Assembly: GCA_903959905.1 (NCBI GenBank)
Contig: CAJBYO010000005.1
Span: 20,674 to 84,673, forward strand
Direction of reading: 5' to 3'
DNA from: an uncultured Bacteroidales bacterium
Lineage (GTDB): Bacteria; Bacteroidota; Bacteroidia; Bacteroidales; FEN-979
Length of the DNA: 64,000 bases
Shown in pieces: positions 4,082 through 64,000 of this stretch. The translations under genes and the position numbers were made by a program. The notes under the pieces were generated by a model. It was not told the DNA's origin and searched no databases. It worked only from the letters and a program-made list of their open reading frames with translations. How positions within the stretch are numbered: position 1 is the first letter of the stretch; the number at the start of each line of letters is the position of its first letter.

Positions 4082-4200
4082 CTCATTTCACGGGGTAAAA
4101 CTGCACGAAGAAGAGTCAACGGTGATGCCTTCAGGAAATGTGGAGGCAGATGCACCGGTGGTTATCTCCAGTGTGATCAGGATTAGAAGCGTTTTCATGG

Positions 4201-5070
4201 TTATTGCTTCACAATTTCTACCCTGCGGTTCAGTTTCCTGCCAGCTTCGGTATCATTGGAACTCACCGGACATGCCTGGCCCACGCCCGCAGCAATGAGT
4301 CTTGAAGGATCAATTTTACCTGTGGAAACAAGGTAGTTCTTAATGTTCTCAGCCCGTGCTTTTGAGAGATTCATGTTGCCGTCGAATGTGCCGGTATTGT
4401 CGGTGTGGCCGGCCACGATGATCTTTACAGAAGGATTGTCATTCAGGTAGCCGGTGATCTGTTTCAATGTTTCAGCCGATTCGGGTTTTATTTCCGACTT
4501 GCCTACGTCAAAGAGAATGCCGTACAGGGCTACTTTCCCGTCTTTGTCAATGCCTTCCTTAAGCGTAAACTCCACCTCCTGTTTCATGCTTTTGACAACA
4601 ACAATGACCACATTATATCCTTTATCGTCAGCGTCATCCGCATTCTCAATGGCCATGAATACCTCATCTCCATTGTCGGTGAAAGAAAAAAAAGTATTCT
4701 TCAGCGACAGGCATTTGCCTTTGATTTTCGTTACCGCATTGGCATAGTTAAGCCGGATCTGGTCGCCGCTTACGGTACGCGGCTCATTTTTATCCTTCTC
4801 ATAGTTGATACGCCGGAACTCCCCGGCTTTTTTCACCCGCACAGATTTGCCGTCAAGGCCGTGATAAAAAAATTCATGTTCCTTATATTCACTTGAGGAA
4901 CAGGCTTTAATGAAAAACCCCTTCATCCGGCCCAGGTACGATGGTTCGATGTTCTTGCAGTCGGCCTTATCTGTTTGACTGTAGGAGGCCAGGGAAAAGA
5001 AAAGAAACGTTATCAGAATTATTGCTCTGACGTGCATATCGGCGTAAGCATTATTTATTTTGGTCATCAT
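4201..5070 (-). CDS. OmpA-family protein (N-terminal domain of unknown function plus OmpA-like peptidoglycan-binding domain)
   Basis: C-terminal GHTDNTG..N..LS..RA..V..YL...NRRVEI motif. Signal peptide present; the start may be the internal ATG at 5037 (MHVRAIILITFLFFSLASYSQ). Confidence 0.85.
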   Translation of the reverse strand: MMTKINNAYADMHVRAIILITFLFFSLASYSQTDKADCKNIEPSYLGRMKGFFIKACSSSEYKEHEFFYHGLDGKSVRVKKAGEFRRINYEKDKNEPRTVSGDQIRLNYANAVTKIKGKCLSLKNTFFSFTDNGDEVFMAIENADDADDKGYNVVIVVVKSMKQEVEFTLKEGIDKDGKVALYGILFDVGKSEIKPESAETLKQITGYLNDNPSVKIIVAGHTDNTGTFDGNMNLSKARAENIKNYLVSTGKIDPSRLIAAGVGQACPVSSNDTEAGRKLNRRVEIVKQ

Positions 5071-5330
5071 CGGAGTGTTTAGCGGTTGCGAAGATAATTA
5101 ATTTCGGTTTTTTGAGGCATGGTGCCGTGATCTGTATTTACCTTAAAAGTTCATTTTCCCACACTACAACCTTCATTTTTGACGCCTGGGGTAGTTAAAT
5201 TTTCCCGGGTGTGATACAACTGTGATTTTTGCAATCAAAAAAATGGTAATGAAAATAAAACATCATTTCACCTGAAATGTTCCGTAATAACAACGGCCTT
5301 TTTTACAACATAAATTTTAAAATCTATCGC

Positions 5331-6788
5331 ATGAAAAATGATTCAATTTTCTTCCTTTCACGCATCTCAGCGAAGGGAATACTGCTTGTTGGCATGATAT
5401 TGATGAGCCTTGGCACTGGCGCTGTGGCGCAGACCACGATCACCGGGGGAACATCCCTGACGGTACTTCCAGGTACCACGATGATTTCAGGAGATAATCT
5501 CAATATCAGCAGCGGTGCGACGATGGACAACCAGGGGCTTGTCGTGCTAAAGAAAAACCTGGCCAACAGCAATGTAGCGGCAAATTCAATTGGCTCCGGA
5601 ACGGTACATTTTTCCGGGACTTCTGCGCAGGCGATCAGCGGGCAGAGTATCATACAGCATATGACCGTGAACAATGCCTCCGGTGTTACTGTATCCGGGA
5701 ACACGAAAGTCAACGGTGCATTGGTGCTGACCAGCGGACTGGTCACACTCGGCAGCAGCAACCTGGTCCTGGGGCCGGCTGCGGTTGTGTCGGGAAACCC
5801 CGGGGCAGTCAACATGGTGGTGCCGACCGGGGCAGGAGAGATCCGGAAAGAGTATGCTGCCGCCGGGAGTTTTACCTTCCCGGTAGGAGATGCTACGGGT
5901 ATTGCGGAATACTCCCCTGTGACTTTGCAGTTCAACAGCGGAACATTCGTTCCAGGCAACACGGCAGGAGTCAAACTTGTAAACGCCCAGTATCCGGGCA
6001 CCGCAACAAGTTACCTGTCAAGGTACTGGACTGTTTCATCCGCGGGGATCACAGATTTTTCATGCAATGCCACTTTCCGTTATCCGGTTGCAGATGTGAA
6101 CGGAACCGAAAGCGACATCTTCAGTTTCAAAGTTGATCCGGCACAGCCATGGATCGCCTACAATTCGGCAAACACAGGAAACCATGAGATTCATGCAAAT
6201 GGCCTCTCTTCCTTCGGTATCTTCACCGGAAATGAAGGCAATGCACCTGTTCCTCCTGATGTTCGGTCGCTCCAGGACAAGATCATCACCCCCGGCATGA
6301 GCAGTTGTGCAGATGCTCAACAAACACTGCTCGTTGCCGGCAACGGAACGACGTACCTTGTACAAAACGGAGGAAGCGTAAACCACATCGCAGGCGTAAA
6401 TATCATCTACGGCCCGGGGTTCAGGGTGGAAGCGGGCGGCTACCTGCACGGGTATATCTCCAATGTTTTCTGCAACCCCTATAATCACAATCAACCGGTT
6501 GTTACCGGTACGGAGGAGCCCGGCCGTCCCACGCCGCCGCAGACCAGTCTTTTCACCGTATATCCGAACCCGACATCAGGCGAGTTTATTGTTGAATTAA
6601 AGGGTGAACCGGCTGAATCTTCGGTACAGGTTGAAATATTCGGCATTCGCGGAGAGCGGCTGCTTTCAGGGGATTTAGGGGTCGCCGGGAAGCAGGTATT
6701 TTCACTGGCATCAAAACCCACTGGGGTGTTTATTGTTCATGTTCGGTCGGGTTCGGTTTCTGAAACGGCCAGAATCATTAAAAAATAA
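5331..6788 (+). CDS. T9SS C-terminal-domain secreted protein (function unknown)
   Basis: In-frame ATG 5331 (MKNDSIFFLSRIS..). Gly/Thr/Asn-rich repeats. C-terminal FTVYPNPTSGEFIVELKG...GVFIVHV matches the T9SS type-A CTD. Confidence 0.7.
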   Translation: MKNDSIFFLSRISAKGILLVGMILMSLGTGAVAQTTITGGTSLTVLPGTTMISGDNLNISSGATMDNQGLVVLKKNLANSNVAANSIGSGTVHFSGTSAQAISGQSIIQHMTVNNASGVTVSGNTKVNGALVLTSGLVTLGSSNLVLGPAAVVSGNPGAVNMVVPTGAGEIRKEYAAAGSFTFPVGDATGIAEYSPVTLQFNSGTFVPGNTAGVKLVNAQYPGTATSYLSRYWTVSSAGITDFSCNATFRYPVADVNGTESDIFSFKVDPAQPWIAYNSANTGNHEIHANGLSSFGIFTGNEGNAPVPPDVRSLQDKIITPGMSSCADAQQTLLVAGNGTTYLVQNGGSVNHIAGVNIIYGPGFRVEAGGYLHGYISNVFCNPYNHNQPVVTGTEEPGRPTPPQTSLFTVYPNPTSGEFIVELKGEPAESSVQVEIFGIRGERLLSGDLGVAGKQVFSLASKPTGVFIVHVRSGSVSETARIIKK

Positions 6789-38739: not shown

Positions 38740-38840
38740 AACCACTGAGGCACGGAGGGCACTTAGAAACACTGAGAATTTGTTGTATACGGGTTGAGTT
38801 ATTCTTAGTGGTCCTCGGTGCCCTCCGTGCCTCAGTGGTT
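38740..38840. repeat. AACCAC...GTGGTT long hairpin (CACTGAGG/CACGGAGG units)
   Basis: 38740-38762 is perfectly complementary to 38818-38840 (23 bp). Further imperfect pairing continues inward. A T-run follows on the + strand. Confidence 0.75.
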
Positions 38841-44307: not shown

Positions 44308-45001
44308 GGTTAATGGAACACAGGTGACGCTGATGTGGCAGATTTACACTGTTTTGGGGGACCGAAGAAAGTTGACTGGGATAGATCTGAACTGTGATTT
44401 AGTTAAATATGTTACCATTATCAGCAAATAGACAGAAATCACTTATGGGTGAATATTTTGCGGCGGATTTCGGGTTCTTTGCCGAAATTAAGGAGTAAAC
44501 CGATTTCAAAATCAGTTGCCTTTAGGTAATTAATCAGTTGAGCTTCATGTTCGGGTCGCAATGATTCTGCTGCTTTGATTTCAACAATGATTTTGTCTTC
44601 AACAGTCAGGTCGGCGTAATAATCCCCAACGACCTGGTTGGCATAATAGACTGAAATTGGTTTCTGTTTTTCAACTTTGAAGCCAAAATTTTCAAGTTCT
44701 ATTCTCAGAGAATTTTCATATACCTTTTCGAGGAATCCATAACCAAGTTTATTGTATACAGTGTAAAAGCACCTGATTATTTCTGAGGATAGATCCTGAT
44801 GCAGGTATTCCATGGTTTAATCAGCTAAAAATTGAAAGTGATGATTAATATAAATGGAAGGAATTAGGATTAATGGAACACAGATGACGCTGGTGATACA
44901 GATTTTCACTGATTTATTTCTTGGTTGACAGGTAGAATAACTATTTTTAGATCTTCACGAACCAAACAGTGTCATCAGTTCAATCAGTGTCATCTGTGTT
45001 C
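44308..45001. mobile_element. Repeat-bounded cassette carrying the GxxExxY ORF
   Basis: A ~44-nt direct repeat (44308-44351 and 44868-44911). Arm gaacacaggtgacgctg at 44316-44332 and gaacacagatgacgctg at 44876-44892 are both complementary to cagtgtcatctgtgttc at 44985-45001. Confidence 0.5.
44439..44813 (-). CDS. GxxExxY protein (PD-(D/E)XK-like, PDDEXK_3 family)
   Basis: LGYGFLEKVYENSL (GxxExxY motif), ADLTVEDKIIVEIKA, EAQLINYLKAT. Confidence 0.85.
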   Translation of the reverse strand: MEYLHQDLSSEIIRCFYTVYNKLGYGFLEKVYENSLRIELENFGFKVEKQKPISVYYANQVVGDYYADLTVEDKIIVEIKAAESLRPEHEAQLINYLKATDFEIGLLLNFGKEPEIRRKIFTHK

Positions 45002-45003
45002 TA

Positions 45004-46020
45004 TTACATCGCAATATCTGATCGGATGCTCTCAAGTTCTAACAACAGTTCCATCGTTTGTTCAACATCAAGCTGCCTTGTATTATGCGAAGTATAATCA
45101 TCTGAACCAGCAACCTTCTGCTCTCCTTCTGTAAAAAACTTGTTGTAATTCAAATCGCGGTTATCTGCCGGGATGCGGAAGTAGGCGTCCATGTCGATGG
45201 CTTTCACCATCTCTTCCCGGTTTACCAGGGTCTCATAGAGTTTTTCGCCATGGCGTGTACCGATTATACTGACGGGATTGGAGGCCTTGTACAGCCCGAG
45301 AAGTGCCCGGGCAAGCACATCAATGGTGGCGGCGGGTGCCTTCTGAACAAAGATATCCCCGTTCGAACCGTGCTCAAAGGCAAACAGCACCAGGTCGACG
45401 GCGCTTTCAAGGGTCATCATGAACCGGGTCATGTTCGGGTCGGTGAGGGTGAGGGGCTGGCCGCTTTTGATCTGGTCAATGAGTAGCGGGATCACCGAGC
45501 CACGGGAGGCCATCACGTTGCCATACCTGGTACCGCAGAAAACAGTACCGCTCCCGTTGAGGTTGCGTGAGCGGGCCACCATCACCTTTTCACTCAGGGC
45601 CTTCGACAATCCCATGGCATTAATCGGATAGACCGCCTTATCTGTGCTTAAAACAACGACGTTTTTCACCCCGTTCTCCAGGGCACTGTCAAGTACGTTC
45701 TCGCAACCCATCACGTTGGTTCTCACGGCTTCCATGGGGAAAAACTCGCAGGAAGGGACCTGCTTCAGGGCAGCGGCATGAAACACATAGTCAACACCGC
45801 GCAGGGCATTGTCAAGGCTGCGTTTGTCGCGTACGTCGCCAATATAATACTTGATCTTGTCATTCCGGTAATGCTGGCGCATGTCATCCTGCTTCTTTTC
45901 ATCCCGGCTGAAAATCCGGATCTCCCTGAAAAGGTCGGTGTGCAAAAAACGGGCAAGGGTGGCGTTGCCGAATGAACCGGTGCCGCCGGTTATTAAAAGA
46001 ATATCGTTGGGGGTGATCAT
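45004..46020 (-). CDS. fnlA: CapE/FnlA-like UDP-N-acetylglucosamine 4,6-dehydratase/5-epimerase
   Basis: ILLITGGTGSFGNA, IRIFSRDEKKQDDMR, YIGDVRD, VDYVFHAAALKQVPSCEFFP, GTRYGNVMASRGSVIPL. Nearly collinear with S. aureus CapE as I remember it. Confidence 0.9.
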   Translation of the reverse strand: MITPNDILLITGGTGSFGNATLARFLHTDLFREIRIFSRDEKKQDDMRQHYRNDKIKYYIGDVRDKRSLDNALRGVDYVFHAAALKQVPSCEFFPMEAVRTNVMGCENVLDSALENGVKNVVVLSTDKAVYPINAMGLSKALSEKVMVARSRNLNGSGTVFCGTRYGNVMASRGSVIPLLIDQIKSGQPLTLTDPNMTRFMMTLESAVDLVLFAFEHGSNGDIFVQKAPAATIDVLARALLGLYKASNPVSIIGTRHGEKLYETLVNREEMVKAIDMDAYFRIPADNRDLNYNKFFTEGEQKVAGSDDYTSHNTRQLDVEQTMELLLELESIRSDIAM

Positions 46021-46026
46021 TGGGTT

Positions 46027-46453
46027 CTTAGATTTAAGTTTTAAGTATTAAGTTTTAAGGTTTGGCGATTTGGGTTTTAGGGAGTTTATTAAGCCCTGGA
46101 GCATGGCGGAGATTTCTTTGGTTTCGGTGATTAATGGCCTGGTTATTTAGGAGGGTAGAATCCCGATTTTTTCTGCTAAATAGATTTGTGTTCGCCGCTC
46201 GGCTGCTGATCCTTTGGCTATATGTAAAAAACGCACATATTCTTTGGTTGTATCTCTTTCTGCACCTTCTGCTATGTTTGAAGGAATCGATATGGATAAC
46301 CTTGTCATCTGGTCCCTCAGCCCAAATTCCTTACAATCTTTTAAAACAGTATAAACTTCAACCGCAAGTTTGCAGGACCGCTTCCAAACTTCAAGATCTT
46401 CAAACGAACGATAAGCCATGCACTTAAAACTTAAAACTTAATACTTAAAACTG
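46027..46453. mobile_element. Hairpin-bounded cassette carrying the four-helix-bundle ORF
   Basis: 46037-46059 (agttttaagtattaagttttaag) is perfectly complementary to 46430-46452. The arms are built of TTAAGTTT-type octamers. The cassette fills the tviC-stop to fnlA-start junction. Confidence 0.55.
46147..46419 (-). CDS. Four-helix-bundle protein (23S rRNA intervening-sequence protein family, PF05635-like)
   Basis: MAYRSFEDLEVWKRS..LAVEVY.......F.LRDQM.R...SIPSNIAEG..R....E...FL.IA.GS..E. Confidence 0.85.
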   Translation of the reverse strand: MAYRSFEDLEVWKRSCKLAVEVYTVLKDCKEFGLRDQMTRLSISIPSNIAEGAERDTTKEYVRFLHIAKGSAAERRTQIYLAEKIGILPS

Positions 46454-47446
46454 TTTTTTCAGATTCTTCCAGTACCATTCCACCGCAATTTCCAACCCCT
46501 GCTCAAGGTTATATTCGGGCTTATATCCCAGGATTGTCACGGCTTTTTCAATGGATGCATGGGAATGGGGGATGTCGCCTTTGCGGTTGGGGCTGCAGGT
46601 GACGGGTATGCCGGCGATCGCCGGGTCAAAAGCTGCAAGATATTTTTTCAGCAGGGCGGTAAGCTGGTTGAGGTCGTTACGTTCCCCCACGGCTGTGTTG
46701 AATACCTGGTTGATGGCCAGTGGGTTTGTTGTGATGGCGGCCAGGTGGTTCATCTGGACAACGTTGTCAACAAAGGTAAAGTCGCGGGAGTTGGTGCCGT
46801 CGCCGAAAATTCCGGGGGATTCATGGGCCATCAGCAACATGGTGAATTTTGGGATCACCGCGGCATACGCACCCTGTGGGTCCTGTTTCGGGCCGTAAAC
46901 GTTGAAATAACGCAGGCCGATGGTGTCCAGTCCGTAGTTGAGGGCAAATACATGGGCATAGAGTTCATTCACATATTTGGTGACGGCATAGGGTGAGAGC
47001 GGCATTCCGATGTTTTGTTCCACCTTGGGAAGGGTCTCCGAATCGCCGTAGGTGGAGGAACTTGCGGCATAAACAAACCGCCTGACACCAGCATCACGCG
47101 AGGCAACAAGCATGTTGAGAAAGCCCCCGACGTTGACCTCGTTTGTCGTAACAGGATCAATGATGGAGCGCGGAACCGATCCAAGCGCGGCTTCGTGCAG
47201 CACAATGTCTATGCCTTCCGCGGCTTTCCGGCAATCCTCAGGGTTCCTGATGTCGCCAACAATCAGCTTGAATTTAGGATGATCACTGAAGGCTGCCAGG
47301 TTCTCTATGCGACCGGTGGAGAAGTTATCAAGGCAGATCACTTCATTTTCATTCCTGAGCAGGTCTTCACAGAGATTTGACCCGATAAAACCGGCGCCGC
47401 CGGTGACGAGGATGCGGGAGGAGGTTATTTTAGGGTAAGGATACAA
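46445..47446 (-). CDS. tviC: NAD-dependent epimerase (TviC/WbpP-like UDP-GlcNAc(A) 4-epimerase)
   Basis: ILVTGGAGFIGSNLCEDLL, VICLDNFSTGR..NL, YAASSSTYGD, SPYAVTKY. The start is a TTG at 47446 lying on the boundary of a repeat arm. Confidence 0.85.
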   Translation of the reverse strand: MYPYPKITSSRILVTGGAGFIGSNLCEDLLRNENEVICLDNFSTGRIENLAAFSDHPKFKLIVGDIRNPEDCRKAAEGIDIVLHEAALGSVPRSIIDPVTTNEVNVGGFLNMLVASRDAGVRRFVYAASSSTYGDSETLPKVEQNIGMPLSPYAVTKYVNELYAHVFALNYGLDTIGLRYFNVYGPKQDPQGAYAAVIPKFTMLLMAHESPGIFGDGTNSRDFTFVDNVVQMNHLAAITTNPLAINQVFNTAVGERNDLNQLTALLKKYLAAFDPAIAGIPVTCSPNRKGDIPHSHASIEKAVTILGYKPEYNLEQGLEIAVEWYWKNLKKQF

Positions 47447-47610
47447 GTTTTAAGTTTTAAGTATTAAGATTTAAGGGGGTTTTGCTTTGAGGATATGGAG
47501 TTTAGGAGGCCGTGGGTGTTTTATTATAGTTCGTATCTTTTCAAGATTTCAGTCTTTTCAAACGCCCGATAAGCCCTACTTAAAACTTAAATCTTAAAAC
47601 TTAAAACTTC
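47445..47610. repeat. Cargo-less copy of the TTAAGTTT hairpin cassette with a remnant of the four-helix-bundle gene 5' end
   Basis: Arms 47445-47478 and 47574-47610 (~28/31 complementary). 47540-47576 (ttcaagatttcagtcttttcaaacgcccgataagccc) is homologous to 46390-46419, but the ATG is lost. Confidence 0.6.
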
Positions 47611-49741: not shown

Positions 49742-49873
49742 ATTTACGATTGGACGATTGAGAGATTGCAGATTGAATTGTTAAATTTCCGATTGACGAT
49801 TGATAGCGCTATCAATCGTAGATCATCAATCGTTAAATTCAATCTGCAATCTCTCAATCGTCTAATCGTAAAT
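49742..49873. repeat. 132-nt near-perfect palindrome (TTTACGATTG-type units)
   Basis: 49742-49779 pairs with 49836-49873 (38 nt, 1 G.T). Central palindrome tgatagcgctatca is centred at 49807/49808. The element ends 3 nt before the pspC stop codon. Confidence 0.8.
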
Positions 49874-52917: not shown

Positions 52918-53781
52918 ATGAGTTTTCGATTTAAAACCCGCGAAGTCCTCCTGTTCATCCTGATCTCCCTCGCTGTATACATTGTATTCATCTTCGGTTT
53001 TGCATGGATCTATTACTCGACAGGAAGCATTGAGATGACGCCCTACACTACACCATACAACCATCCGTCGGCATCCCCGGTTTCGGAAAAGATCAACTTT
53101 GAAAAAGCAGTGTACTTCAGCATCGTATCTTTTCATACGATCGGGTTTGGCGACATACATCCGAATACCCAATTGGGGAGGCAGGTAGTGATGGTGCAGT
53201 CAACGCTTTCCCTGTTTTTTACCGCCATCTTCTCAGGATTCCTGGTGTATTTTGTGATCAAGCGGCCACAGGATGTGTTTACCACTAAAAAGGTTTATAT
53301 CCGCATTCGGAAGGACCGGTATATCCTTTCACTCCGTTTAGGGAACAAGGGGCGCGACATCATTGACCTGAAGAGCAAATTTGAGGCCTGGACCATTGAA
53401 AACAACACCCGGGTGCGTGCTTTCCGCTACGAGGAAGAGCTGCCCGACCTGGAGAAGATACTTTATTATGACCTGGATCTTGACAGTGATGACAACCGGA
53501 GTCTGCGAATAGCAATTAACGATGCCCTTCTCAACGGAACCCTGCTTCACATGAAGTTCTCGTTTATCGGCAACGATATGAAAACAGGTGAACAGGTTGC
53601 ATTTGCCAAGTATTACGATTCACGGCACCTGAGTTTCGGCAAAATGTTCCTGAACGTTTATTCCTGGGATACCAACGGCAGGAGAAAGAACTTCCGGTGG
53701 GGTAATTTTGAGCGGATAGAGGCCATGGAGAAGGAAAAAGTTGCGGGATTTGCAGGCAAGGTACAAGTTACAAATGACTAA
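52918..53781 (+). CDS. Two-TM potassium channel with beta-rich cytoplasmic C-terminal domain (KirBac-like)
   Basis: Selectivity filter SFHTIGFGD between two TM helices. A ~170-aa C-terminal domain follows. The last 5 codons lie in a repeat arm. Confidence 0.75.
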   Translation: MSFRFKTREVLLFILISLAVYIVFIFGFAWIYYSTGSIEMTPYTTPYNHPSASPVSEKINFEKAVYFSIVSFHTIGFGDIHPNTQLGRQVVMVQSTLSLFFTAIFSGFLVYFVIKRPQDVFTTKKVYIRIRKDRYILSLRLGNKGRDIIDLKSKFEAWTIENNTRVRAFRYEEELPDLEKILYYDLDLDSDDNRSLRIAINDALLNGTLLHMKFSFIGNDMKTGEQVAFAKYYDSRHLSFGKMFLNVYSWDTNGRRKNFRWGNFERIEAMEKEKVAGFAGKVQVTND

Positions 53782-53852
53782 TTACAAATGGCGGAGGAAA
53801 CTAACCGGGTCGGAAAGCTCCCCACTTGTCATTTGTAATTAGTCACTTGTAA
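53768..53852. repeat. Hairpin between convergent K+ channel and msrAB genes
   Basis: ttacaaatgactaattacaaatg at 53768-53790 vs catttgtaattagtcacttgtaa at 53830-53852 (22/23 complementary). The left arm contains the channel stop codon. Confidence 0.75.
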
Positions 53853-53856
53853 TTTC

Positions 53857-58359: not shown

Positions 58360-58379
58360 TCAACTTTTTACAACCATTG

Positions 58380-58408
58380 AAAACCCGGTCATTTGGCCGG
58401 GTTTTTTT
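58380..58408 (+). terminator. Rho-independent terminator after the EF-G paralog
   Basis: aaaacccgg-tcatttgg-ccgggttttttt. A 9-bp stem (including A-U pairs) followed by a T-run, 20 nt after the stop codon. Confidence 0.75.
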
Positions 58409-58424
58409 GAATTCAGATGTAACC

Positions 58425-59687
58425 GTGCCAGACAATGATACCTCTTCTGTAAAGCATGATGCCTACGCGGTGCTGAAGGTCGGTGATTTCAGGTTGTTCC
58501 TGTCTTTCCGCTTTTTTACCACCATTGCTTTCCAGATGCAGGGGCTCATCGTTGGCTGGCAGATGTATGAACTTACCAGGGACCCGCTGGCACTCGGGCT
58601 CATCGGACTTGCTGAAGCCTTGCCGAATATTGCCACCGCCCTATTTGCCGGTCATGCCGCCGACCGCTACAACCGGAAACGGATCATCGTATTGTTCACG
58701 CTTTTGTTCCTGGTGGGGACCACCATGCTTTTTTTGTTCTCCATAAAATCACTGGGAATCATTGCAGCATTCGGTGTGTTCCCGATCTATCTTGTGGTGA
58801 TGATCTCCGGCATCTCACGGTCTTTCCTGTATCCTGCAATTGTAGCGATGATGTCGCAACTCATTCCAAGGCAGCTGTACACAAACGCCTCCACCTGGAG
58901 CAGCACGATGTGGCATATTGCAGCCATCACCGGCCCGGCACTGGGCGGACTGATTTACGGATTTTTTGGGGTAAGGGCCGCATACATGAGTGTGCTTGTT
59001 TTTCTGATGATCTCCCTTCTTTTGCTTGGCTTTGTGAAGAACCGGCCGATGCCGCAGTTTGTTCCGGGAGAAAGCCTCTACCATCGGCTTTCATCCGGGC
59101 TTAAATTTGTATTTAACAACCAGGTTCTCCTGGGAGCGATGTCGCTTGATATGTTTGCCGTGCTCTTTGGTGGCGCGGTTGCCATGCTGCCTGTATTTGC
59201 CGCGGAAGTGCTGAAGGTTGGTCCCCAGGGACTGGGTTTTTTACGTGCCGCCCCGATGCTGGGTGCCGTGATGATGTCGCTGGTGATGGCCCACCGTCCT
59301 CCCATGGTCCATGCAGGCCGGTACCTGATGATCGGCGTGGCGGGATTCGGGTTAAGCATCATCTGTTTTGCCCTGTCGCGAAATTTCTATCTTTCGCTCG
59401 GACTGCTCATGCTCAGCGGGATGTTCGACAACATCAGCGTAATCATCCGTGCAACGGCCATGCAACTGCTTACCCCCGACGAGATGCGCGGCCGGGTGGC
59501 CTCCGTCAACGCCATCTTCATCGGCTCGTCGAACGAGATCGGGTCCTTCGAATCGGGCGTTGCGGCAAAGCTGATGGGACTGATCCCTTCCGTGATCTTC
59601 GGCGGCATCATGACGCTGGGGATCGTTGGGTTTACGACACGGTTTGCGCCGAAGCTGAGGAGGTTGAACCTGCAGGAGATCGGTTGA
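58425..59687 (+). CDS. MFS transporter
   Basis: 12-TM pattern with D-R-x-x-R-K-like loop (ADRYNRKR). The start is uncertain (TTG 58407 or GTG 58425). The track start 58377 overlaps the upstream terminator. Confidence 0.8.
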   Translation: MPDNDTSSVKHDAYAVLKVGDFRLFLSFRFFTTIAFQMQGLIVGWQMYELTRDPLALGLIGLAEALPNIATALFAGHAADRYNRKRIIVLFTLLFLVGTTMLFLFSIKSLGIIAAFGVFPIYLVVMISGISRSFLYPAIVAMMSQLIPRQLYTNASTWSSTMWHIAAITGPALGGLIYGFFGVRAAYMSVLVFLMISLLLLGFVKNRPMPQFVPGESLYHRLSSGLKFVFNNQVLLGAMSLDMFAVLFGGAVAMLPVFAAEVLKVGPQGLGFLRAAPMLGAVMMSLVMAHRPPMVHAGRYLMIGVAGFGLSIICFALSRNFYLSLGLLMLSGMFDNISVIIRATAMQLLTPDEMRGRVASVNAIFIGSSNEIGSFESGVAAKLMGLIPSVIFGGIMTLGIVGFTTRFAPKLRRLNLQEIG

Positions 59688-59704: not shown

Positions 59705-62700
59705 TTACCGCAGCAAAGTTATTGACCCGTTTGCATGGTACGTTTCTCCCGATGATTCATCCAGGTTATAGGTGGCAATGAACATATACACCCCGTCGGA
59801 GCACATTTCACCCTTGATCCTCCCGTCCCATCCAGGTTCGATTTCGTTGGATTCATAGATCTTCAGTCCCCATCGGTCATAGATCATGATGTTGTATTTG
59901 GTGACGCCGAGCCCGACAGGGTGGAAGGTCTCATTCAGCCCGTCGCCGTTCGGGGTGAACACATTCGGGAACCAGAGCGGCGACACACATTCGCCGATGG
60001 CGATGCTGTCGCGGGCTGTACAGCCGTCTTTGGTCACGATCACCCAATAATCACCTGGGGAGTAAACGGCATAGGTTGAGTCTGTTGAGCCATCTGGCCA
60101 GAGATATCCTGCGCCCGGGACGCCAGTATGCAGCATGATCGGAGGGCCATTGCAGAACATGGTGTCTTTACCCAATGATACCGGGATGGCAGGTTTATAT
60201 CTGAGGGTTGTCTGGATGATGCTGTCGCAGCCGCCGCCATTCGGGATGGTATCATGATAGGTCCCCGGCTGGGTTTGCAGGGCGCCTCCGGCGAACCATG
60301 CGGTGCCTGCACAGAGTGTGGTATCAATATAAACGGGAGCGGGCCTGGCAATGACGACGATCTGCTTGCAAAGGCTGGCCTGGTCAGGCTTTCCTTCATT
60401 GACAATCAGTTGGACCTGGTAGGTGCCAGGCTGGCTGTAAGAATAGGCTGGAGGATTGTAAAGGTCCGAGGAGGCTGTGGCTGCGTTTGAACAGGAAAGG
60501 AAATGCAGCCTTGTGAGTGTGGAATTCTGGCGGTTCACTGCGTACAGGAACAGGGTATCGCCGACCCTGAAAAGTTCGGAAAAAGTATTTGGACGGGCCA
60601 GCGAGCCAATGTTACCCAGTGAATTTCCCAGGAGAGGGCCGGTAATTCCGGATGGCAAACGTAGTCGCCAGATGAGATCGGAAGATGTTGACGAATAGTG
60701 CAGCTGAAATCCTGTAATTCGCTGACAATCCCGTATGAATGAAATTTCACCGGGGGGTGACAAGGAAGGGCATGCGGTTCCGGTGTTTATGCCAGTGGGG
60801 GTGTTCAGCAGCGAATTCCCAAATGTCAGCCGGGTGATAGTATTATCCCCGTTATTGACAACCATGCAGTACCATACTCCGTTTTCCTTCAGAAACTGAA
60901 AAGCAGCGGGGTTGTTCATTGCTCCCAATGGCCCTAAGTCGGTAAGCACAGGGGCATTCAAAAGGCTGTTGCCAAAATCCATTCGGATCATCCTGTTGGT
61001 CTGGTTTGAGGTGATAAAGCCGAGCCAGGTGCTGCCTTCCTTGATTATTTCAAGGCCCCGGGCGACATAGAGCATGGAATATGGGCCAAGAAGCGTGGCA
61101 GAAGGAGTGTTCGCAAGGGAGGTGCCGAAATTCAGTCTTACCAGCCTGTTGTTGTTGTTCACGATCCCGATCCACTGCCCGTTGTCGTACCGGATCTTAA
61201 TCCCCATGACAGTATCGCTCAGCAAGCCGAAACCACCTAGGTTTGTCCATGAAACCGGTTTGTTGTTAAAGCTCGTTCCATGACTGTATCTTACCACCGA
61301 TTTGCTGGCCTGGTTTGTAATAAACGAATGGCAATTGTTCCCGTCCTTTACAAGTGTACAATACCCGGGCACGTTCAGCATGTTTCCGGGATTGCCGATA
61401 TTGGAGCCCAACGGGTTCGGCAGGGTATCCCCGGTGCAAAAACTCCAGTAAAACGATTCTCCTCCAACAGTCTGGTTTAAAATATTTACCGGCATACCAA
61501 CACAAACGGTATCCGGTGCAGAAAATGCAGCATTCAGATTTACCGGACAGGCTTTTACCACAATGCTCTTGCACACAGTCGCCTGGGTTGGCATTCCTTC
61601 ATTGACGATCAGCTGAATATTGTATGTTCCGGGCTGACTGTAAGAAAAGGATGGAGGGGAGTACTGGCCGGATGAAGGGACTGAGGCGTTGGTGCAAGGC
61701 AGAAATCGCAACCGGGTCAGGCTGGGAGTCAACCGGTTGGTCGCATAAAGAAACAGCGTATCCCCCGACCGGAAGAGTTCCGAAAAACGCAGGGGCTGGC
61801 TCAGGTTACCGATATTTCCCAGTGAAGTGCCTGTGACAGGCCCCGTGATACCGCTGGGGAAATTCAGGCGCCAGATCAGGTCGGGGGAGGTTACGGAAGT
61901 GTTGAGTTGATACCCGACTGTGTTTTCACAGTCCCGGATAAGGGCAATGCCGGCAGCAGTAATCGAAGGGCACACATTGCCAAGATTAACGCCATCCGGG
62001 GGATTTAGCAATGAACTGCCAAAAGAAAACCGGGTGAGGGTGTTATCCCCGTAATTTACCACGATCCCGGTCCAACTACCGGATTCTTTTATGATACAGA
62101 ATGTGGTGGGCATATTCATGGCCCCGGGAGTTCCAAGGTCTGTCAGGACAGGGGAATTTAAAAGACTGTTGCCAAAATTCAACCTCACCAGCCTGTTTCC
62201 CCAGGAACAGGTTACAAAGCCGATCCAATTACCTCCTTCGTAAAACAGGTCGAGGCCATGGGCAAAATAGAGCAGGGAATATGTTCCCAGCATGGTTGCT
62301 GTTGGCGTATTTCCCACGGATGATCCGAAATTCAGCCTGACAATCTTGGTGTTGTCAACCACAATTCCGATCCATGTCCCGTTGTCGTTGCGGATTTTAA
62401 TGCCCTGGACAGTATCGCTGATCATGCTAAAATCCCCGAGGTTCGTCCATGAAACCGGGTTGTTATTGAAGCTGGCGCCATGATTATACCTCACCACCCT
62501 GTTGCTACCATGGGTGGTGATGAAAGAGTAACATGTTCCACCGTCTTTCACCATGGTGATATATCCCGGGATATTGAGCAGGTTACCGGGATTGCCGATA
62601 TTGATCCCGGCCGGATCTGACACAACATTGCCTGAGCAGAAATTCCAGTAGCAGCTGCTCACGCCTGCCGAGGTGTTGGTAATGCTGACCGGTTGATTCA

Positions 62701-62827
62701 CGCAAACGGTATCAGGCGAGAGGAATGCCGCCACCTGGGCCTGGAGAAAAGGGCCGGACAGGATCTGGAGCAGGACAAGGGCAACAGCAGCGATCAGCGG
62801 TCTTGCAGCGTTCATGAGTGAGGGCAT
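59705..62827 (-). CDS. T9SS type-B (gliding-motility-associated C-terminal domain) surface protein with two ~390-aa tandem modules
   Basis: C-terminal FPNVFTPNGDGLNETF...YDRWG..IYES...WDG. Residues ~35-425 and ~430-820 are collinear paralogous modules. Confidence 0.85.
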   Translation of the reverse strand: MPSLMNAARPLIAAVALVLLQILSGPFLQAQVAAFLSPDTVCVNQPVSITNTSAGVSSCYWNFCSGNVVSDPAGINIGNPGNLLNIPGYITMVKDGGTCYSFITTHGSNRVVRYNHGASFNNNPVSWTNLGDFSMISDTVQGIKIRNDNGTWIGIVVDNTKIVRLNFGSSVGNTPTATMLGTYSLLYFAHGLDLFYEGGNWIGFVTCSWGNRLVRLNFGNSLLNSPVLTDLGTPGAMNMPTTFCIIKESGSWTGIVVNYGDNTLTRFSFGSSLLNPPDGVNLGNVCPSITAAGIALIRDCENTVGYQLNTSVTSPDLIWRLNFPSGITGPVTGTSLGNIGNLSQPLRFSELFRSGDTLFLYATNRLTPSLTRLRFLPCTNASVPSSGQYSPPSFSYSQPGTYNIQLIVNEGMPTQATVCKSIVVKACPVNLNAAFSAPDTVCVGMPVNILNQTVGGESFYWSFCTGDTLPNPLGSNIGNPGNMLNVPGYCTLVKDGNNCHSFITNQASKSVVRYSHGTSFNNKPVSWTNLGGFGLLSDTVMGIKIRYDNGQWIGIVNNNNRLVRLNFGTSLANTPSATLLGPYSMLYVARGLEIIKEGSTWLGFITSNQTNRMIRMDFGNSLLNAPVLTDLGPLGAMNNPAAFQFLKENGVWYCMVVNNGDNTITRLTFGNSLLNTPTGINTGTACPSLSPPGEISFIRDCQRITGFQLHYSSTSSDLIWRLRLPSGITGPLLGNSLGNIGSLARPNTFSELFRVGDTLFLYAVNRQNSTLTRLHFLSCSNAATASSDLYNPPAYSYSQPGTYQVQLIVNEGKPDQASLCKQIVVIARPAPVYIDTTLCAGTAWFAGGALQTQPGTYHDTIPNGGGCDSIIQTTLRYKPAIPVSLGKDTMFCNGPPIMLHTGVPGAGYLWPDGSTDSTYAVYSPGDYWVIVTKDGCTARDSIAIGECVSPLWFPNVFTPNGDGLNETFHPVGLGVTKYNIMIYDRWGLKIYESNEIEPGWDGRIKGEMCSDGVYMFIATYNLDESSGETYHANGSITLLR

Positions 62828-62908
62828 GCCAAGTAAGTACCCGGTAAAGTTAGCAAAGATATGCGGAAGGTGGGTGGAATGTGAAAATCTTTTATCTCAC
62901 CCCCTGGC

Positions 62909-63085
62909 GCCATCTTCATCGGATCCTCCAACGAGATCGGGTCATTTGAATCGGGGGTTGCGGCCAAACTGATGGGACTGATCCCCTCGGTGATCTTCGG
63001 CGGCATCATGACACTTGGGATTGTGGGCTTTACCACGAGGTTTGCACCAAGGTTGAGGAAGTTGAATCTGAAGGAGTTGGGGTGA
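62909..63085 (+). pseudogene. Orphan 3' fragment (58 codons plus stop) of an MFS transporter allele
   Basis: Aligns without gaps to 59511-59687. About 30 of 177 nt differ but 54 of 58 codons encode the same amino acid. No upstream coding continuation. Confidence 0.7.
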
Positions 63086-63086
63086 A

Positions 63087-63660
63087 ATACCTCACCCCCC
63101 TGCCCCCTCTCCGCCCTGAGAGGGGGAGGATTCGCCATAAATGGTTTGGCGTGATTGCATACTTTTTCAGTGCTATGAAAGTTATTGCTCTTTTAAAGAA
63201 GTTGATTGATTTTAAAATGCAAATTCATGGCGTTTATTAAAACAAGTTACCGGAACGATTTTTATTTTGGAGCTTCACGGGAATTGATAACGCGAGCCAA
63301 AAAATTGAGAAAGGTTGAAACAAACGCAGAGCGGATTTTATGGGATGCTTTGCGAAATAAACGATTTTCTCATCTGAAATTCAGAAGACAACACCCGGTA
63401 AAATGGTTTATTGCAGATTTTTATTGTCATGAGATCAAGCTTATCATTGAGGTTGACGGTGGGATTCACAACCAAGAAGACAAGGCAGCATATGACACGG
63501 GCCGGATGCATGAAATAGAAAGTTTAGGACTTATTGTCATTCGTTTTTCAAACGACGAAATCCTGAATAACCTGACATCTGTTCTCAATCAAATTCAACG
63601 AACCATTCAAAGCGAATCCTCCCCCTCTCAGGGCGGAGAGGGGGCAGGGGGGTGAGGTAT
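63087..63660. mobile_element. 574-bp element: DUF559 ORF bounded by perfect 49-bp terminal inverted repeats
   Basis: 63087-63135 (atacctcacccccctgccccctctccgccctgagagggggaggattcgc) is the exact reverse complement of 63612-63660. Each arm contains its own palindrome, ccccctct/agaggggg. Confidence 0.6.
63227..63655 (+). CDS. DUF559 endonuclease-domain protein (Vsr/restriction-endonuclease-like fold)
   Basis: AR.LRK..T.AE..LW..LR......KFRRQHP.....ADFYC.E.KL.IEVDG..H........D..R......G..V.RF.N.E. The last ~15 codons lie inside the right inverted repeat. Confidence 0.8.
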   Translation: MAFIKTSYRNDFYFGASRELITRAKKLRKVETNAERILWDALRNKRFSHLKFRRQHPVKWFIADFYCHEIKLIIEVDGGIHNQEDKAAYDTGRMHEIESLGLIVIRFSNDEILNNLTSVLNQIQRTIQSESSPSQGGEGAGG

Positions 63661-63661
63661 A

Positions 63662-64000
63662 TTACAAATACAACCTTATCAACGCCGCATAATCATCTTC
63701 CTTCATCTTTACATTCCCACCGCTTACTTTGCTGTGTACCATGGCATCAAACAGGGGCTCGCGATGGTCGCCGGGTATGTTCATGTCTGACAGGCGGGTC
63801 GGACAGTCGAGTGATTTGAAGAACGATTCAATACGGTTAATGGATTCATCGGCTGATAGCGGTTCATCAAATAACTGTGATCCCAGTTGTGCGATCCGGT
63901 CGCCGATCCGGTTTTTGAAGTGGCGCATCCAGGCGGGGTAAACGATTGTAAGCGACGCTCCGTGAGGTACGTCATAAAGCAGTGAAAGGCAATGGCCGGC
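63662..64000 (-). CDS. Iron-containing alcohol dehydrogenase, C-terminal part (gene continues beyond window)
   Basis: The frame is open to the window edge: ..GHCLSLLYDVPHGASLTIVYPAWMRH.., a typical Fe-ADH C-terminal region. Confidence 0.8.
   Translation of the reverse strand, partial: AGHCLSLLYDVPHGASLTIVYPAWMRHFKNRIGDRIAQLGSQLFDEPLSADESINRIESFFKSLDCPTRLSDMNIPGDHREPLFDAMVHSKVSGGNVKMKEDDYAALIRLYL

Follow-up and report, generated by a model that had tools for sequence, protein, structure and literature searches.

A small gene encoding a predicted Vsr-like nuclease of the DUF559 family lies between two inverted copies of a published bacterial repeat, the G/C-rich intrastrand triplex motif (TM; BoxC in E. 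coli), in an uncultured Bacteroidales bacterium, and gene and repeats come and go as one unit, suggesting that DUF559 may be the long-missing enzyme partner of these repeats. The feature was found in a stretch of 64,000 nucleotides (contig CAJBYO010000005.1 of assembly GCA_903959905.1), hereafter the window. No enzyme or function has been assigned to the repeat (Holder 2015, PMC4666352), and our literature searches on DUF559 in connection with repeats, hairpins and mobility, and on ycjD and BoxC, found no report linking the two; the match to the triplex motif study came only from searching the literal motif strings.

We first re-examined the sequence features described in the initial annotation, and its observation proved correct throughout. 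The two arms of the 574-bp block are exact reverse complements (49/49), and an imperfect extension yields arms of 65 nt (63082-63146 and 63601-63665; 92% complementary), part of which runs inward into the last codons of the gene. The 24-nt hairpin core occurs only at these two places in the window and 0 times in 100 shuffles. Each arm folds alone into a 9-bp G/C hairpin plus 3 more pairs, with free energies of -11.1 (left) and -11.4 (right) kcal/mol and z-scores of -2.9 and -1.9. A single base separates the arm from the stop codon on either side: the TGA of the MFS remnant (63083-63085) is followed by A (63086), and the right arm is followed by A (63661) and then by TTA (63662-63664), the stop of the Fe-ADH gene on the minus strand. 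To test if the arrangement could be an assembly artefact, we read 13 contigs that carry the identical Fe-ADH protein; the two arrangements listed both have DUF559 next to it, and the other 11 were collapsed as having mostly the same neighbours, so an artefact was excluded. The features are summarized in Table 1.

Table 1. Coordinates of the TM-DUF559-TM block and its surroundings in the window
Position	Strand	Feature	Details
62885..63085	+	Left flank, 3' remnant (66 codons) of the MFS transporter gene	61/66 aa identical to the C-terminus of the full MFS gene at 58377-59687; the same C-terminus abuts Fe-ADH in L210 and L212; marks the ancestral convergent MFS/Fe-ADH junction into which the cassette was inserted
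63079..63085	+	GGGGTGA, last codons and stop of the MFS remnant	7-nt match to the third strand of the motif, directly next to the left arm; also present in the empty site of L212; may be a microhomology or target cue (significance inferred from one locus only)
63087..63135		Left arm of the perfect 49-bp inverted repeat	Complete triplex motif at 63091-63126; on the + strand: complement of the third strand (CCTCACCCCCC), linker, pyrimidine stem CCCCCTCTC, loop, purine stem GAGAGGGGG
63136..63226	+	A/T-rich leader between left arm and start codon	First ~20 nt are an imperfect inverted copy of the 3' end of the gene; promoter role presumed, no sigma-70-type consensus found
63227..63655	+	DUF559 gene, 142 aa	Intact; predicted Vsr-like PD-(D/E)XK nuclease with E75, D77, H81 and D90 intact; the ATG at 63227 agrees with the starts of close homologues
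63612..63660		Right arm of the inverted repeat	Triplex motif at 63621-63656: CCCCCTCTC, loop, GAGAGGGGG, linker CAG, third strand GGGGGGTGAGG; encodes the last 14 residues of DUF559 (SESSPSQGGEGAGG) and the stop
63662..64000	-	Right flank, 3' end of the Fe-dependent alcohol dehydrogenase (Fe-ADH) gene	Runs off the window; identical to protein P0140 over 112 aa

One feature had been overlooked: outside each hairpin lies a G-rich third segment that mirrors the purine stem, which makes each arm a formal intrastrand triplex motif. Using a motif finder requiring 8-nt stems with at most 1 mismatch, we obtained calls at the two arms only, with no other call in 64 kb and none in shuffles, whereas related contigs carry additional distant copies of the same variant. 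The literal TM_ECO pattern (CCCTCNCCC N3-6 GGGNGAGGG N3 GGGNGAGGG) is not matched, since the window has CCCCCTCTC N6 GAGAGGGGG CAG GGGGGGTGAGG; the architecture is the same but the register differs, and the arms are thus a variant of the class and not TM_ECO itself. TM variants are shared by DUF559-adjacent and distant copies on the same contig, each genome using its own variant, and the third strand covaries with the purine stem across genomes, which is consistent with a triplex, although triplex formation by single-stranded DNA has been shown in vitro only for TM_ECO (PMC4666352) and is inferred here. An Rfam search of the region gave only a sub-threshold chance match (RF03537, 17.8 bits against 38.3), and no known RNA family was identified.

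Next, we sought to characterize the protein. It matches the DUF559 profile (PF04480) with 119 bits against a cut-off of 20.6 (E=1e-34; profile positions 4-108 of 109), the only other Pfam hit being a weak MTES_1575 match. Its profile also hits PDB 3HRL, from which the fold is known (E=6e-27), and the Vsr-like homing endonuclease I-Bth0305I (PDB 3R3P; E=2e-5 over 74 residues; PMC3239194). Residues E75, D77, H81, D90, R93 and N109 are invariant across 30 homologues and present in the window protein, and by alignment the conserved acidic and histidine residues were assigned to Vsr D51/H69/D97; nuclease activity itself is inferred from sequence. The protein core is under purifying selection (dN/dS about 0.11), which argues only that the protein is functional. 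The tail SSPSxGGEGAGG is conserved in homologues of 66-80% identity, and in the comparison with L001, a homologous locus, none of 12.3 synonymous sites of the arm-coded tail changed, against 57 of 80 in the core, while nucleotide identity was about 90% for the arm and 69% for the gene core. These data indicated that the arm-coded tail is constrained as DNA and not as peptide.

To test if TMs are associated with DUF559 genes in general, we examined 80 DUF559 loci fetched by protein similarity alone. Strict TMs occurred at 1.27/kb within 300 nt of the gene and at 0.054/kb elsewhere, a 23-fold difference; 41 loci have a TM near the gene, 26 have TMs on both sides, and 48 have one by either of two definitions. 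The second definition, with 6-nt stems and no mismatch, performed worse than the strict one and missed even the arms in the window; the strict counts and the union are reported. By eye, at least 17 more loci show a shorter C5-N3-C5-loop-G5 version in inverted repeat. In the converse test, a scan with the DNA motif alone yielded at least 120 genome stretches, and the six of these 120 that contain a DUF559 gene all have it within 171 nt of the motif; however, about 114 of the 120 have no DUF559 within 8 kb, so that TMs persist and perhaps spread without a nearby gene. The relatives returned by a metagenome scan with DUF559 were only 39-54% identical and not of the 66-80% subfamily, and the arm-level comparison within the close subfamily therefore rests on loci L001-L004, L206 and L213. 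More distant homologues on viral contigs (28-44% identical) mostly lack TMs, with 2 of 17 hits having one, and phages are therefore not an obvious vehicle.

The link reaches E. coli ycjD, whose product is 45% identical to the window protein: YcjD ends in a TM-coded SPSP tail, a 3'-end fragment of the gene is duplicated, and TM_ECO no. 9 lies about 168 nt downstream. E. coli has 23 TM loci, and Salmonella is reported to lack TM_ECO.

We then compared the MFS/Fe-ADH junction with the orthologous junctions of relatives. It is occupied in the window, L206, L001-L003 and L213; it is empty, lacking both TM and DUF559, in L210/L211 (1-nt spacer) and L212 (39-nt spacer), which have no TM in about 7 kb; L213 holds an inverted, 5'-truncated copy; and L214 retains only an arm relic. 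L001 further carries a miniature, internally deleted derivative and three tandem copies of a 78-nt unit made of the 3' end of the gene plus a TM. One contig carries two TM-bounded units of 583 nt that are 98.97% identical and 3.5 kb apart, with unrelated flanks and with identity ending inside the TMs, which shows recent copying. A single ancestral insertion with a clean monophyletic occupied clade was considered, but the Fe-ADH neighbour-joining tree does not support it, and either several losses or repeated insertion at the same site must be assumed. No convincing target-site duplication was found: only a single A flanks each end, and the ATA of a possible ATA/TAT duplication belongs to the inverted repeat in L001.

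The interpretation offered in the initial annotation, a compact, possibly autonomous mobile or homing-type unit, was supported only in part. The block does behave as a discrete unit, and most DUF559 homologues of this subfamily are flanked by inverted repeats, so that the condition set beforehand as refuting, that such homologues are never so flanked, did not hold. Yet the arms are not private terminal repeats of the element, as they belong to a widely dispersed family (intrastrand triplex motif, BoxC, PIT) that also occurs alone, in close inverted pairs, in tandem and even in frame inside genes, in many phyla. The recent activity that the perfect arms were taken to suggest, as an alternative to strong structural selection, is not required for this copy, because the same site is occupied in a lineage whose DUF559 (68% aa) and Fe-ADH (71% aa over the same C-terminal stretch, 79% full length) have diverged about equally, with synonymous sites saturated; the perfect arms therefore fit DNA-level constraint or arm-to-arm conversion at least as well as youth. 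The proposed parallel with the 4HB and GxxExxY cassettes 17 kb away is only architectural, since their flanks are A/T-rich heptamer repeats and not triplex motifs. Autonomy is unproven, as a PD-(D/E)XK nuclease cannot by itself carry out strand transfer.

We reasoned that the block is a TM-DUF559-TM cassette whose nuclease acts on TM DNA, a reading that we hold to be about as likely as not. What the analysis shows is that the arms are formal TMs, that gene and TMs are gained and lost together relative to empty orthologous sites, that the cargo can invert between the arms, lose its 5' part or vanish leaving an arm relic, that TM-bounded copies can be duplicated within a genome, that TMs are strongly concentrated at DUF559 gene borders from Bacteroidota to E. 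coli in genome-specific variants, and that the protein is kept by purifying selection. The remainder is inference, as no biochemical or genetic evidence shows that any DUF559 protein binds or cuts a TM. In this view, DUF559 would recognise and nick or cut TM DNA, the likely substrate being the motif extruded as a hairpin or triplex during replication, and the breaks would be repaired by recombination between TM copies; this would copy the gene into other TM pairs (homing-like gene conversion with TMs as homology arms), homogenise the two arms, and produce the tandem and inverted duplications of the gene 3' end plus TM seen in L001, in a further locus (L095) and in E. coli. First arrival at a TM-free site such as this junction would need another route, since these nucleases do not catalyse strand transfer; microhomology-mediated insertion at the GGGGTGA of the MFS stop region is one possibility. 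The copy in the window is intact and probably long resident rather than freshly inserted: the window and L001 elements have diverged about as much as the neighbouring Fe-ADH, which looks like long vertical residence and not the rapid invade-decay cycle typical of homing endonuclease genes. The enrichment could also partly reflect slippage-driven local duplication of TMs rather than enzyme action.

Of the alternatives, a RAYT/REP-like partnership appeared the most plausible, though unlikely. Here DUF559 would be a largely vertically inherited, domesticated nuclease that spreads or maintains the dispersed TMs (solo copies and inverted doublets, like REPINs) while the gene itself does not move and simply sits between two of its substrate repeats. 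This agrees with the flanking by inverted copies of the genome's own TM variant, with solo TMs and close inverted pairs 30-210 nt apart in many phyla (five such pairs are reported in E. coli K-12; PMC4666352), with the match of all 5,426 complete E. coli genomes to a fabI-ycjD-sapF query, 3,346 of them keeping the K-12 arrangement, and with the co-divergence and low dN/dS noted above. It is at odds with the presence or absence of gene plus TMs as a unit among close relatives, its decay in some, and the two near-identical copies on one contig, and the enzyme is not an HUH/Y1 transposase and has no known strand-transfer chemistry. Holder et al. report 1 to 29 TMs among E. coli strains while every genome searched here matched at least part of the query, but as this is not a per-genome score of ycjD presence or TM number, the contrast is only suggestive evidence against this reading. 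Less likely still is a passive association, in which unstable, slippage-prone TMs duplicate locally in direct and inverted orientation and an ordinary host repair or defence nuclease that does not act on TMs acquired one at its 3' end, the left arm arising as an inverted duplication of the gene 3' end plus TM. The imperfect extension of the inverted repeat into the last codons, the tandem duplications of this unit in L001, L095 and E. coli, the link of TMs to local instability (Holder et al.) and a rearrangement breakpoint 11-43 nt beyond the TM at the E. coli fabI-ycjD locus favour it; it does not explain why one protein family carries TMs on both sides and in both polarities in phyla from Bacteroidota to Proteobacteria, why empty sites lack TMs and gene together, or why a TM-bounded unit was copied to a second site.

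Two further readings were considered very unlikely. The arms could be bidirectional terminators or insulators between convergent genes or, once transcribed, could pair into a 49-bp RNA stem processed by RNase III, as for ORF-containing rRNA intervening sequences; they abut two convergent stop codons and are perfectly complementary, and four-helix-bundle (IVS-type) cassettes with inverted flanks exist in the same window. However, a terminator and promoter scan found no terminator-like site, because no T tract follows either hairpin; the E. coli motifs had no promoter or terminator activity in earlier work cited in PMC4666352; relatives manage with a 1-nt spacer and no hairpin; a terminator does not explain the third strand and its covariation with the purine stem; and in many homologues the two TMs differ in loop and linker, so that long-range pairing is not conserved. 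A non-autonomous MITE-like element mobilized by a transposase encoded elsewhere, with DUF559 as passenger, would account for the perfect terminal inverted repeats, the discrete insertion relative to empty sites and the miniature derivative in L001, but there is no target-site duplication beyond 1 nt and no transposase domain in the block, no transposase family is known to be associated with TMs, Holder et al. found no link to transposons, phages or plasmids, and the cargo is always the same family under strong purifying selection, which is unusual for a passenger.

Both halves of this feature are long-standing orphans. DUF559 is a very large family of small Vsr-like nucleases with no assigned role, and the triplex repeats occur thousands of times in bacterial genomes and destabilise their surroundings, yet the main study found "no specific function", no flanking-gene pattern and no link to mobile elements (PMC4666352). 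The strong physical link reported here suggests a testable enzyme-substrate pair, both partners of which E. coli carries, and a new way for a nuclease gene and a structured repeat to propagate together. A bolder possibility, which we put forward only tentatively, is that DUF559 proteins are the cognate nucleases of these repeats across bacterial phyla, forming with them a self-propagating pair, a second and mechanistically different counterpart of RAYT/REP in which a Vsr-like nuclease cuts structured repeat DNA and recombination between repeats spreads both. If true, this would give a function to a large domain of unknown function, including YcjD, and would explain the origin, spread and instability of a repeat family that has had no known enzyme since the early 1990s.

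Compared with known systems, the arms share with TM_ECO (Holder et al. 2015), the PIT motifs of Hoyne/Maher 2000 and the BoxC repeats a C-rich pyrimidine stem, a 3-6 nt loop, a complementary purine stem, a ~3-nt linker and a G-rich third segment that mirrors the purine stem with one A replaced by T, and both are intergenic, often found as inverted pairs and linked to local rearrangement; the stem register differs (CCCCCTCTC / GAGAGGGGG here against CCCTCNCCC / GGGNGAGGG), the host is Bacteroidota and not Proteobacteria or Cyanobacteria, and two copies here bracket a DUF559 gene and move with it, whereas the published work assigns no partner gene. As in REP sequences with their RAYT transposases (REPtrons, REPINs), a single small nuclease-type gene is flanked by inverted copies of a short hairpin repeat that is also dispersed as solo copies and inverted doublets, the repeat variant is genome-specific, and residence is long and under purifying selection; the enzyme, however, is a Vsr-like PD-(D/E)XK nuclease and not a RAYT, although it may work in a comparable way, the repeat has a third, mirror-repeat segment, and the gene-plus-repeat unit shows presence/absence polymorphism and duplication. 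With free-standing homing endonuclease genes of the EDxHD family (I-Bth0305I) it shares a homologous catalytic domain, a site that is occupied, empty or holds a decaying copy in related lineages, and one copy event with conversion-like boundaries inside flanking homology, but it is not in an intron or intein, no NUMOD or HTH DNA-binding domain was detected, it is rare on viral contigs, it is flanked by structured repeats, and it has been conserved for a long time at one site. Finally, E. coli YcjD (b1289) and the Neisseria gonorrhoeae protein of PDB 3HRL belong to the same family; in YcjD the TM at the stop codon is degenerate and no TM was seen upstream, and its locus was matched in all complete E. 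coli genomes searched rather than showing the gain and loss seen here.

To test if the features described in the initial annotation were present as stated, we re-examined each of them in the sequence, and every sequence statement proved to be correct. The two arms of the inverted repeat are exact reverse complements of each other, 49 of 49 nt, and a weaker extension brings the arms to 65 nt at 92% complementarity. The 24-nt hairpin core occurs only at these two places in the window and never in 100 shuffles, and each arm folds on its own into a G/C hairpin of about -11 kcal/mol. The left arm starts one base after the TGA of a 66-codon MFS-transporter remnant, while the right arm ends one base before the stop of the convergent Fe-ADH gene. 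Between the arms lies a 142-codon ORF, which matches DUF559 (PF04480) at E=1e-34, and its last 14 codons and stop lie in the right arm. We also read 13 contigs carrying the identical Fe-ADH protein; both arrangements listed have DUF559 next to it, and the other 11 contigs were collapsed as having mostly the same neighbours. Thus, the arrangement is not an assembly artefact. Coordinates of these and other features are collected in the table below.

Coordinates of the cassette, its surroundings in the window and features observed at other loci
Sequence	Position	Strand	Feature
Window	63087-63135		Left arm of the inverted repeat
Window	63612-63660		Right arm of the inverted repeat
Window	63091-63126		Triplex motif of the left arm
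Window	63621-63656		Triplex motif of the right arm
Window	63227-63655		DUF559 ORF
Window	58377-59687	+	Complete MFS gene
Window	59705-62827	-	T9SS-sorted adhesin-like gene
Window	62885-63085	+	MFS remnant (second copy of the last 66 codons)
Window	44439-44813, 46147-46419	-, -	GxxExxY protein gene and four-helix-bundle gene
Window	46024-46063 / 46423-46452 and 47445-47475 / 47579-47609		Repeats in the region of these two genes
Window	38740-38840		Inverted repeat or palindrome, 40 nt at 88%
Window	49742-49873		66-nt perfect-centre palindrome at 83%
Window	53765-53855		Inverted repeat or palindrome, 26 nt at 92%
Window	44871-45006		Inverted repeat or palindrome, 33 nt at 79%
L207 (also L208, L209)	4188-5330		AAA_14/DUF4143 gene at the MFS/Fe-ADH junction
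L005	2820-2865 and 3604-3649, within ORF 2581-4017		Two double-sided triplex motifs in frame
L066	about 5830-5880 and 6420-6470		Triplex-motif variant with interrupted purine stem
L205 (E. coli K-12)	1351163-1351240 (K-12 numbering)		fabI-ycjD locus, similarity break beyond TM_ECO no. 9
L095	73-251		Tandem 'last ~14 codons of DUF559 + triplex motif' units
L001	10360-10595		Tandem 'last ~14 codons of DUF559 + triplex motif' units
L205 (E. coli K-12)	3300-3420		Diverged copy of the same kind of unit

Next, we sought to identify the arms. The close homologues of the protein are 66-80% identical and mostly exactly 142 aa, and they all end in the same arm-coded tail, SSPSPGGEGAGG, which pointed to a conserved DNA element rather than a private repeat. 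We then retrieved 80 loci of 39-54% identical DUF559 homologues by protein similarity alone, and most of these were again bracketed by inverted repeats built from one module, i.e. (A)CCTCACCCC, about 3 nt, CCCCTCTCC, a loop, GGAGAGGGG, and variants of it. A literal search of the literature for these strings led to Holder et al. 2015 (PMC4666352), in which the module is the G/C-rich intrastrand triplex motif (TM), called TM_ECO in E. coli and earlier PIT or BoxC. It consists of a pyrimidine stem, a loop, the complementary purine stem, a 3-nt linker, and a third G-rich segment that mirrors the purine stem. A formal finder called both window arms as complete TMs, whereas it found no other TM in 64 kb and none in shuffled sequence. 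The published work reports 3,610 TM_ECO copies in 262 proteobacterial genomes, a stable triplex in vitro, and raised local genomic variability, but no promoter or terminator activity, no pattern in the flanking genes, and no link to transposons, phages or plasmids, and it does not mention DUF559 or any endonuclease. Since the register of the window stems differs from the literal TM_ECO pattern, the window motif is a variant of the class.

To test if the association between DUF559 and TMs is general, we determined the TM density in the 80 loci fetched by protein. Strict TMs occurred at 1.27 per kb within 300 nt of the gene and at 0.054 per kb elsewhere, a 23-fold difference; 41 loci have a TM near the gene, 26 have one on both sides, and 48 qualify under either of two definitions. 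By eye, at least 17 of the remaining loci show a shorter C5-N3-C5-loop-G5 version in inverted repeat. Both polarities of the module relative to the gene occur, and the gene can face either way between the arms. On single contigs, the TMs next to DUF559 and the distant ones are the same variant, while the variant differs between genomes. The third segment covaries with the purine stem, as seen on contigs L017, L010, L066, L011 and L078, examples being GGGGAAGGG with GGGATGGGG, and GGAGAAGG with GGATGAGG, in which one A is always replaced by T. This covariation supports a mirror-repeat (triplex-type) constraint.

The converse test was also performed, in which species-representative genomes were scanned at the DNA level for CCTCACCCC N2-6 CCCCTCTCC. 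This yielded at least 120 stretches, from Planctomycetota, Chloroflexota, Bacteroidota, Acidobacteriota, Cyanobacteria, Xanthomonas, Rhodanobacter, Pseudomonas and others. About half of the 159 matches in the 120 stretches are followed by a perfect complementary stem, and by eye many of the rest by an imperfect one. Only six of these stretches contain a DUF559 gene, always within 171 nt of the motif, and the other motifs are solo, in close inverted pairs 30-210 nt apart, in tandem, between ordinary operon genes, or even in frame inside a gene. In contig L005, for instance, two double-sided triplex motifs lie in frame inside a 479-aa ORF, which reads through them (..SSPPFSKGGMGG.., ..PYSSPYQGEDRRGG..).

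The link reaches E. coli K-12, where ycjD (DUF559) ends in SPSP, encoded by a degenerate TM, and is followed by a duplicated fragment of the gene's 3' end and then by TM_ECO no. 9 about 168 nt downstream. The window protein is 45% identical to YcjD, and its best NCBIfam match is the YcjD model. Of 5,426 complete E. coli genomes, 3,346 keep the K-12 fabI-ycjD arrangement, while in the others similarity breaks 11-43 nt beyond TM_ECO no. 9. Two papers mention ycjD in connection with the eefABC efflux locus, but a link between that locus and this breakpoint is only a guess. In contrast, more distant DUF559 proteins on viral contigs mostly lack TMs.

To examine if gene and arms are gained and lost together, we looked up orthologues of the window's own Fe-ADH (P0140). 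In L210/L211 the full MFS gene and Fe-ADH converge with a 1-nt spacer, and in L212 they converge with a 39-nt spacer; neither site has a TM or a DUF559. The MFS C-terminus in these relatives matches the remnant in the window. The cassette therefore sits exactly in the ancestral convergent junction, TTGGGGTGA-A-[574 bp]-A-TTA. The GGGGTGA of the MFS stop region is a 7-nt match to the TM third strand and is also present in the empty site of L212, which may be a microhomology, but the evidence is one locus. The remnant is a second copy of the last 66 codons (61/66 aa identical) of a complete MFS gene in the window, and a 1040-aa T9SS-sorted adhesin-like gene lies between the two copies. Since MFS abuts Fe-ADH directly in relatives, the adhesin gene seems to have been inserted together with a replacement MFS 3' end.

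Other lineages showed other states of this site. L001-L003 hold an intact homologue (68% aa) at the same place, 1 nt from the Fe-ADH stop, as well as an internally deleted mini-copy between arms, partial arm copies, and three tandem copies of a 78-nt 'gene 3' end + TM' unit. L213 holds a copy that is inverted relative to Fe-ADH and 5'-truncated, with the arm fused to about codon 59, and L214 holds only a truncated arm, 31 nt after the stop. In one related lineage (L207-L209) the junction is occupied by an AAA_14/DUF4143 ATPase gene instead of DUF559. This tiny convergent intergenic site repeatedly receives foreign genes. On an Fe-ADH neighbour-joining tree the occupied lineages are not monophyletic, and either several losses or repeated insertion at the same site must be assumed.

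Contig L066 carries two 583-nt TM-bounded DUF559 units that are 98.97% identical and 3.5 kb apart, with unrelated flanks and with the identity ending inside the TMs. This is what gene conversion between TM-flanked sites would leave. On the same contig, a triplex-motif variant interrupted in its purine stem by an insert of about 21 nt (TTGCGAAGCACACCTGTGGTG) appears twice, on either side of one DUF559 copy. Furthermore, tandem duplications of the unit 'last ~14 codons of DUF559 + triplex motif' recur in unrelated genomes, with three 78-nt copies in a Bacteroidales MAG (L095), three in L001, and one diverged copy in E. coli (L205), which suggests a recurrent slippage or repair product at this motif.

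Selection was then evaluated by comparing the window with L001. The DUF559 core has a dN/dS of about 0.11, with a dS of about 2.2 (saturated), indicating that the predicted nuclease has been kept functional for a long time. In the arm-coded tail none of 12.3 synonymous sites changed, against 57 of 80 in the core, whereas the non-synonymous rate of the tail equals that of the core. Thus, the tail is constrained as DNA, not as peptide. The arms are about 90% identical between the two lineages, while the gene core is 69% and the neighbouring Fe-ADH 3' end 72% identical. DUF559 (68% aa) and Fe-ADH (71% aa over the same stretch, 79% full length) have diverged about equally, which fits long co-residence. 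The perfect arms then indicate DNA-level constraint or arm-to-arm conversion rather than a recent insertion.

As for the protein, the profile of the family hits PDB 3HRL (a DUF559 protein) at E=6e-27 and 3R3P, the Vsr-like catalytic domain of the homing endonuclease I-Bth0305I, at E=2e-5. I-Bth0305I makes double-strand breaks next to its intron insertion site (PMC3239194), and the PD-(D/E)XK survey places VSR, DUF559 and 3R3P in one group (PMC3424549). The residues E75, D77, H81 and D90 are invariant.

The initial annotation interpreted the block as a compact, possibly autonomous mobile or homing-type unit, with perfect arms suggesting recent activity or strong structural selection and a placement paralleling the 4HB and GxxExxY cassettes, and this interpretation is partly supported. 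Gene and arms do behave as a unit of gain and loss, but the arms are not a private repeat, and the comparison with L001 does not point to a recent insertion. In the region of the other two cassettes, a GxxExxY protein gene (TIGR04256, E=3e-41) and a four-helix-bundle (4HB; rRNA-IVS type, TIGR02436) gene lie between sugar-nucleotide enzyme-like ORFs, and the 4HB gene lies between inverted copies of an A/T-rich TTTTAAG-heptamer repeat. These flanks are not triplex motifs, so the similarity to the DUF559 cassette is in architecture only. Four further inverted repeats or palindromes in the window (see the table) are likewise not triplex motifs by the finder.

We reasoned that the block is a TM-DUF559-TM cassette in which the nuclease acts on TM DNA, a reading that we hold with about even confidence. 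In this view, break repair between TM copies would spread the gene among TM pairs, homogenise the arms and generate the observed duplications and inversions. Our data establish the anatomy, the joint gain and loss, the enrichment, the copy event and the selection pattern, whereas nuclease activity of this protein, triplex formation by its arms, recognition and cleavage of TMs, and the route into TM-free sites are inferred. A RAYT-like, essentially stationary nuclease that services dispersed TMs is possible but less likely, and a passive association caused by TM slippage is doubtful. We regard as very unlikely a MITE moved by an unknown transposase, and equally so a terminator or RNA-stem role, since no T tract is present, no activity was found in earlier work, relatives do without any hairpin, and the third strand is left unexplained.

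The arms belong to a known repeat class and the protein to a known domain family, whereas in the searchable literature we found no report that ties DUF559 to these repeats. The evidence leaves room for DUF559 being the general partner enzyme of BoxC/TM repeats, although we put this forward only tentatively. Among known systems, the composite would work most like a RAYT/REP pair or a free-standing homing endonuclease gene, yet it lacks the defining features of both, having no HUH transposase in the first comparison and no intron or intein and no NUMOD domain in the second.
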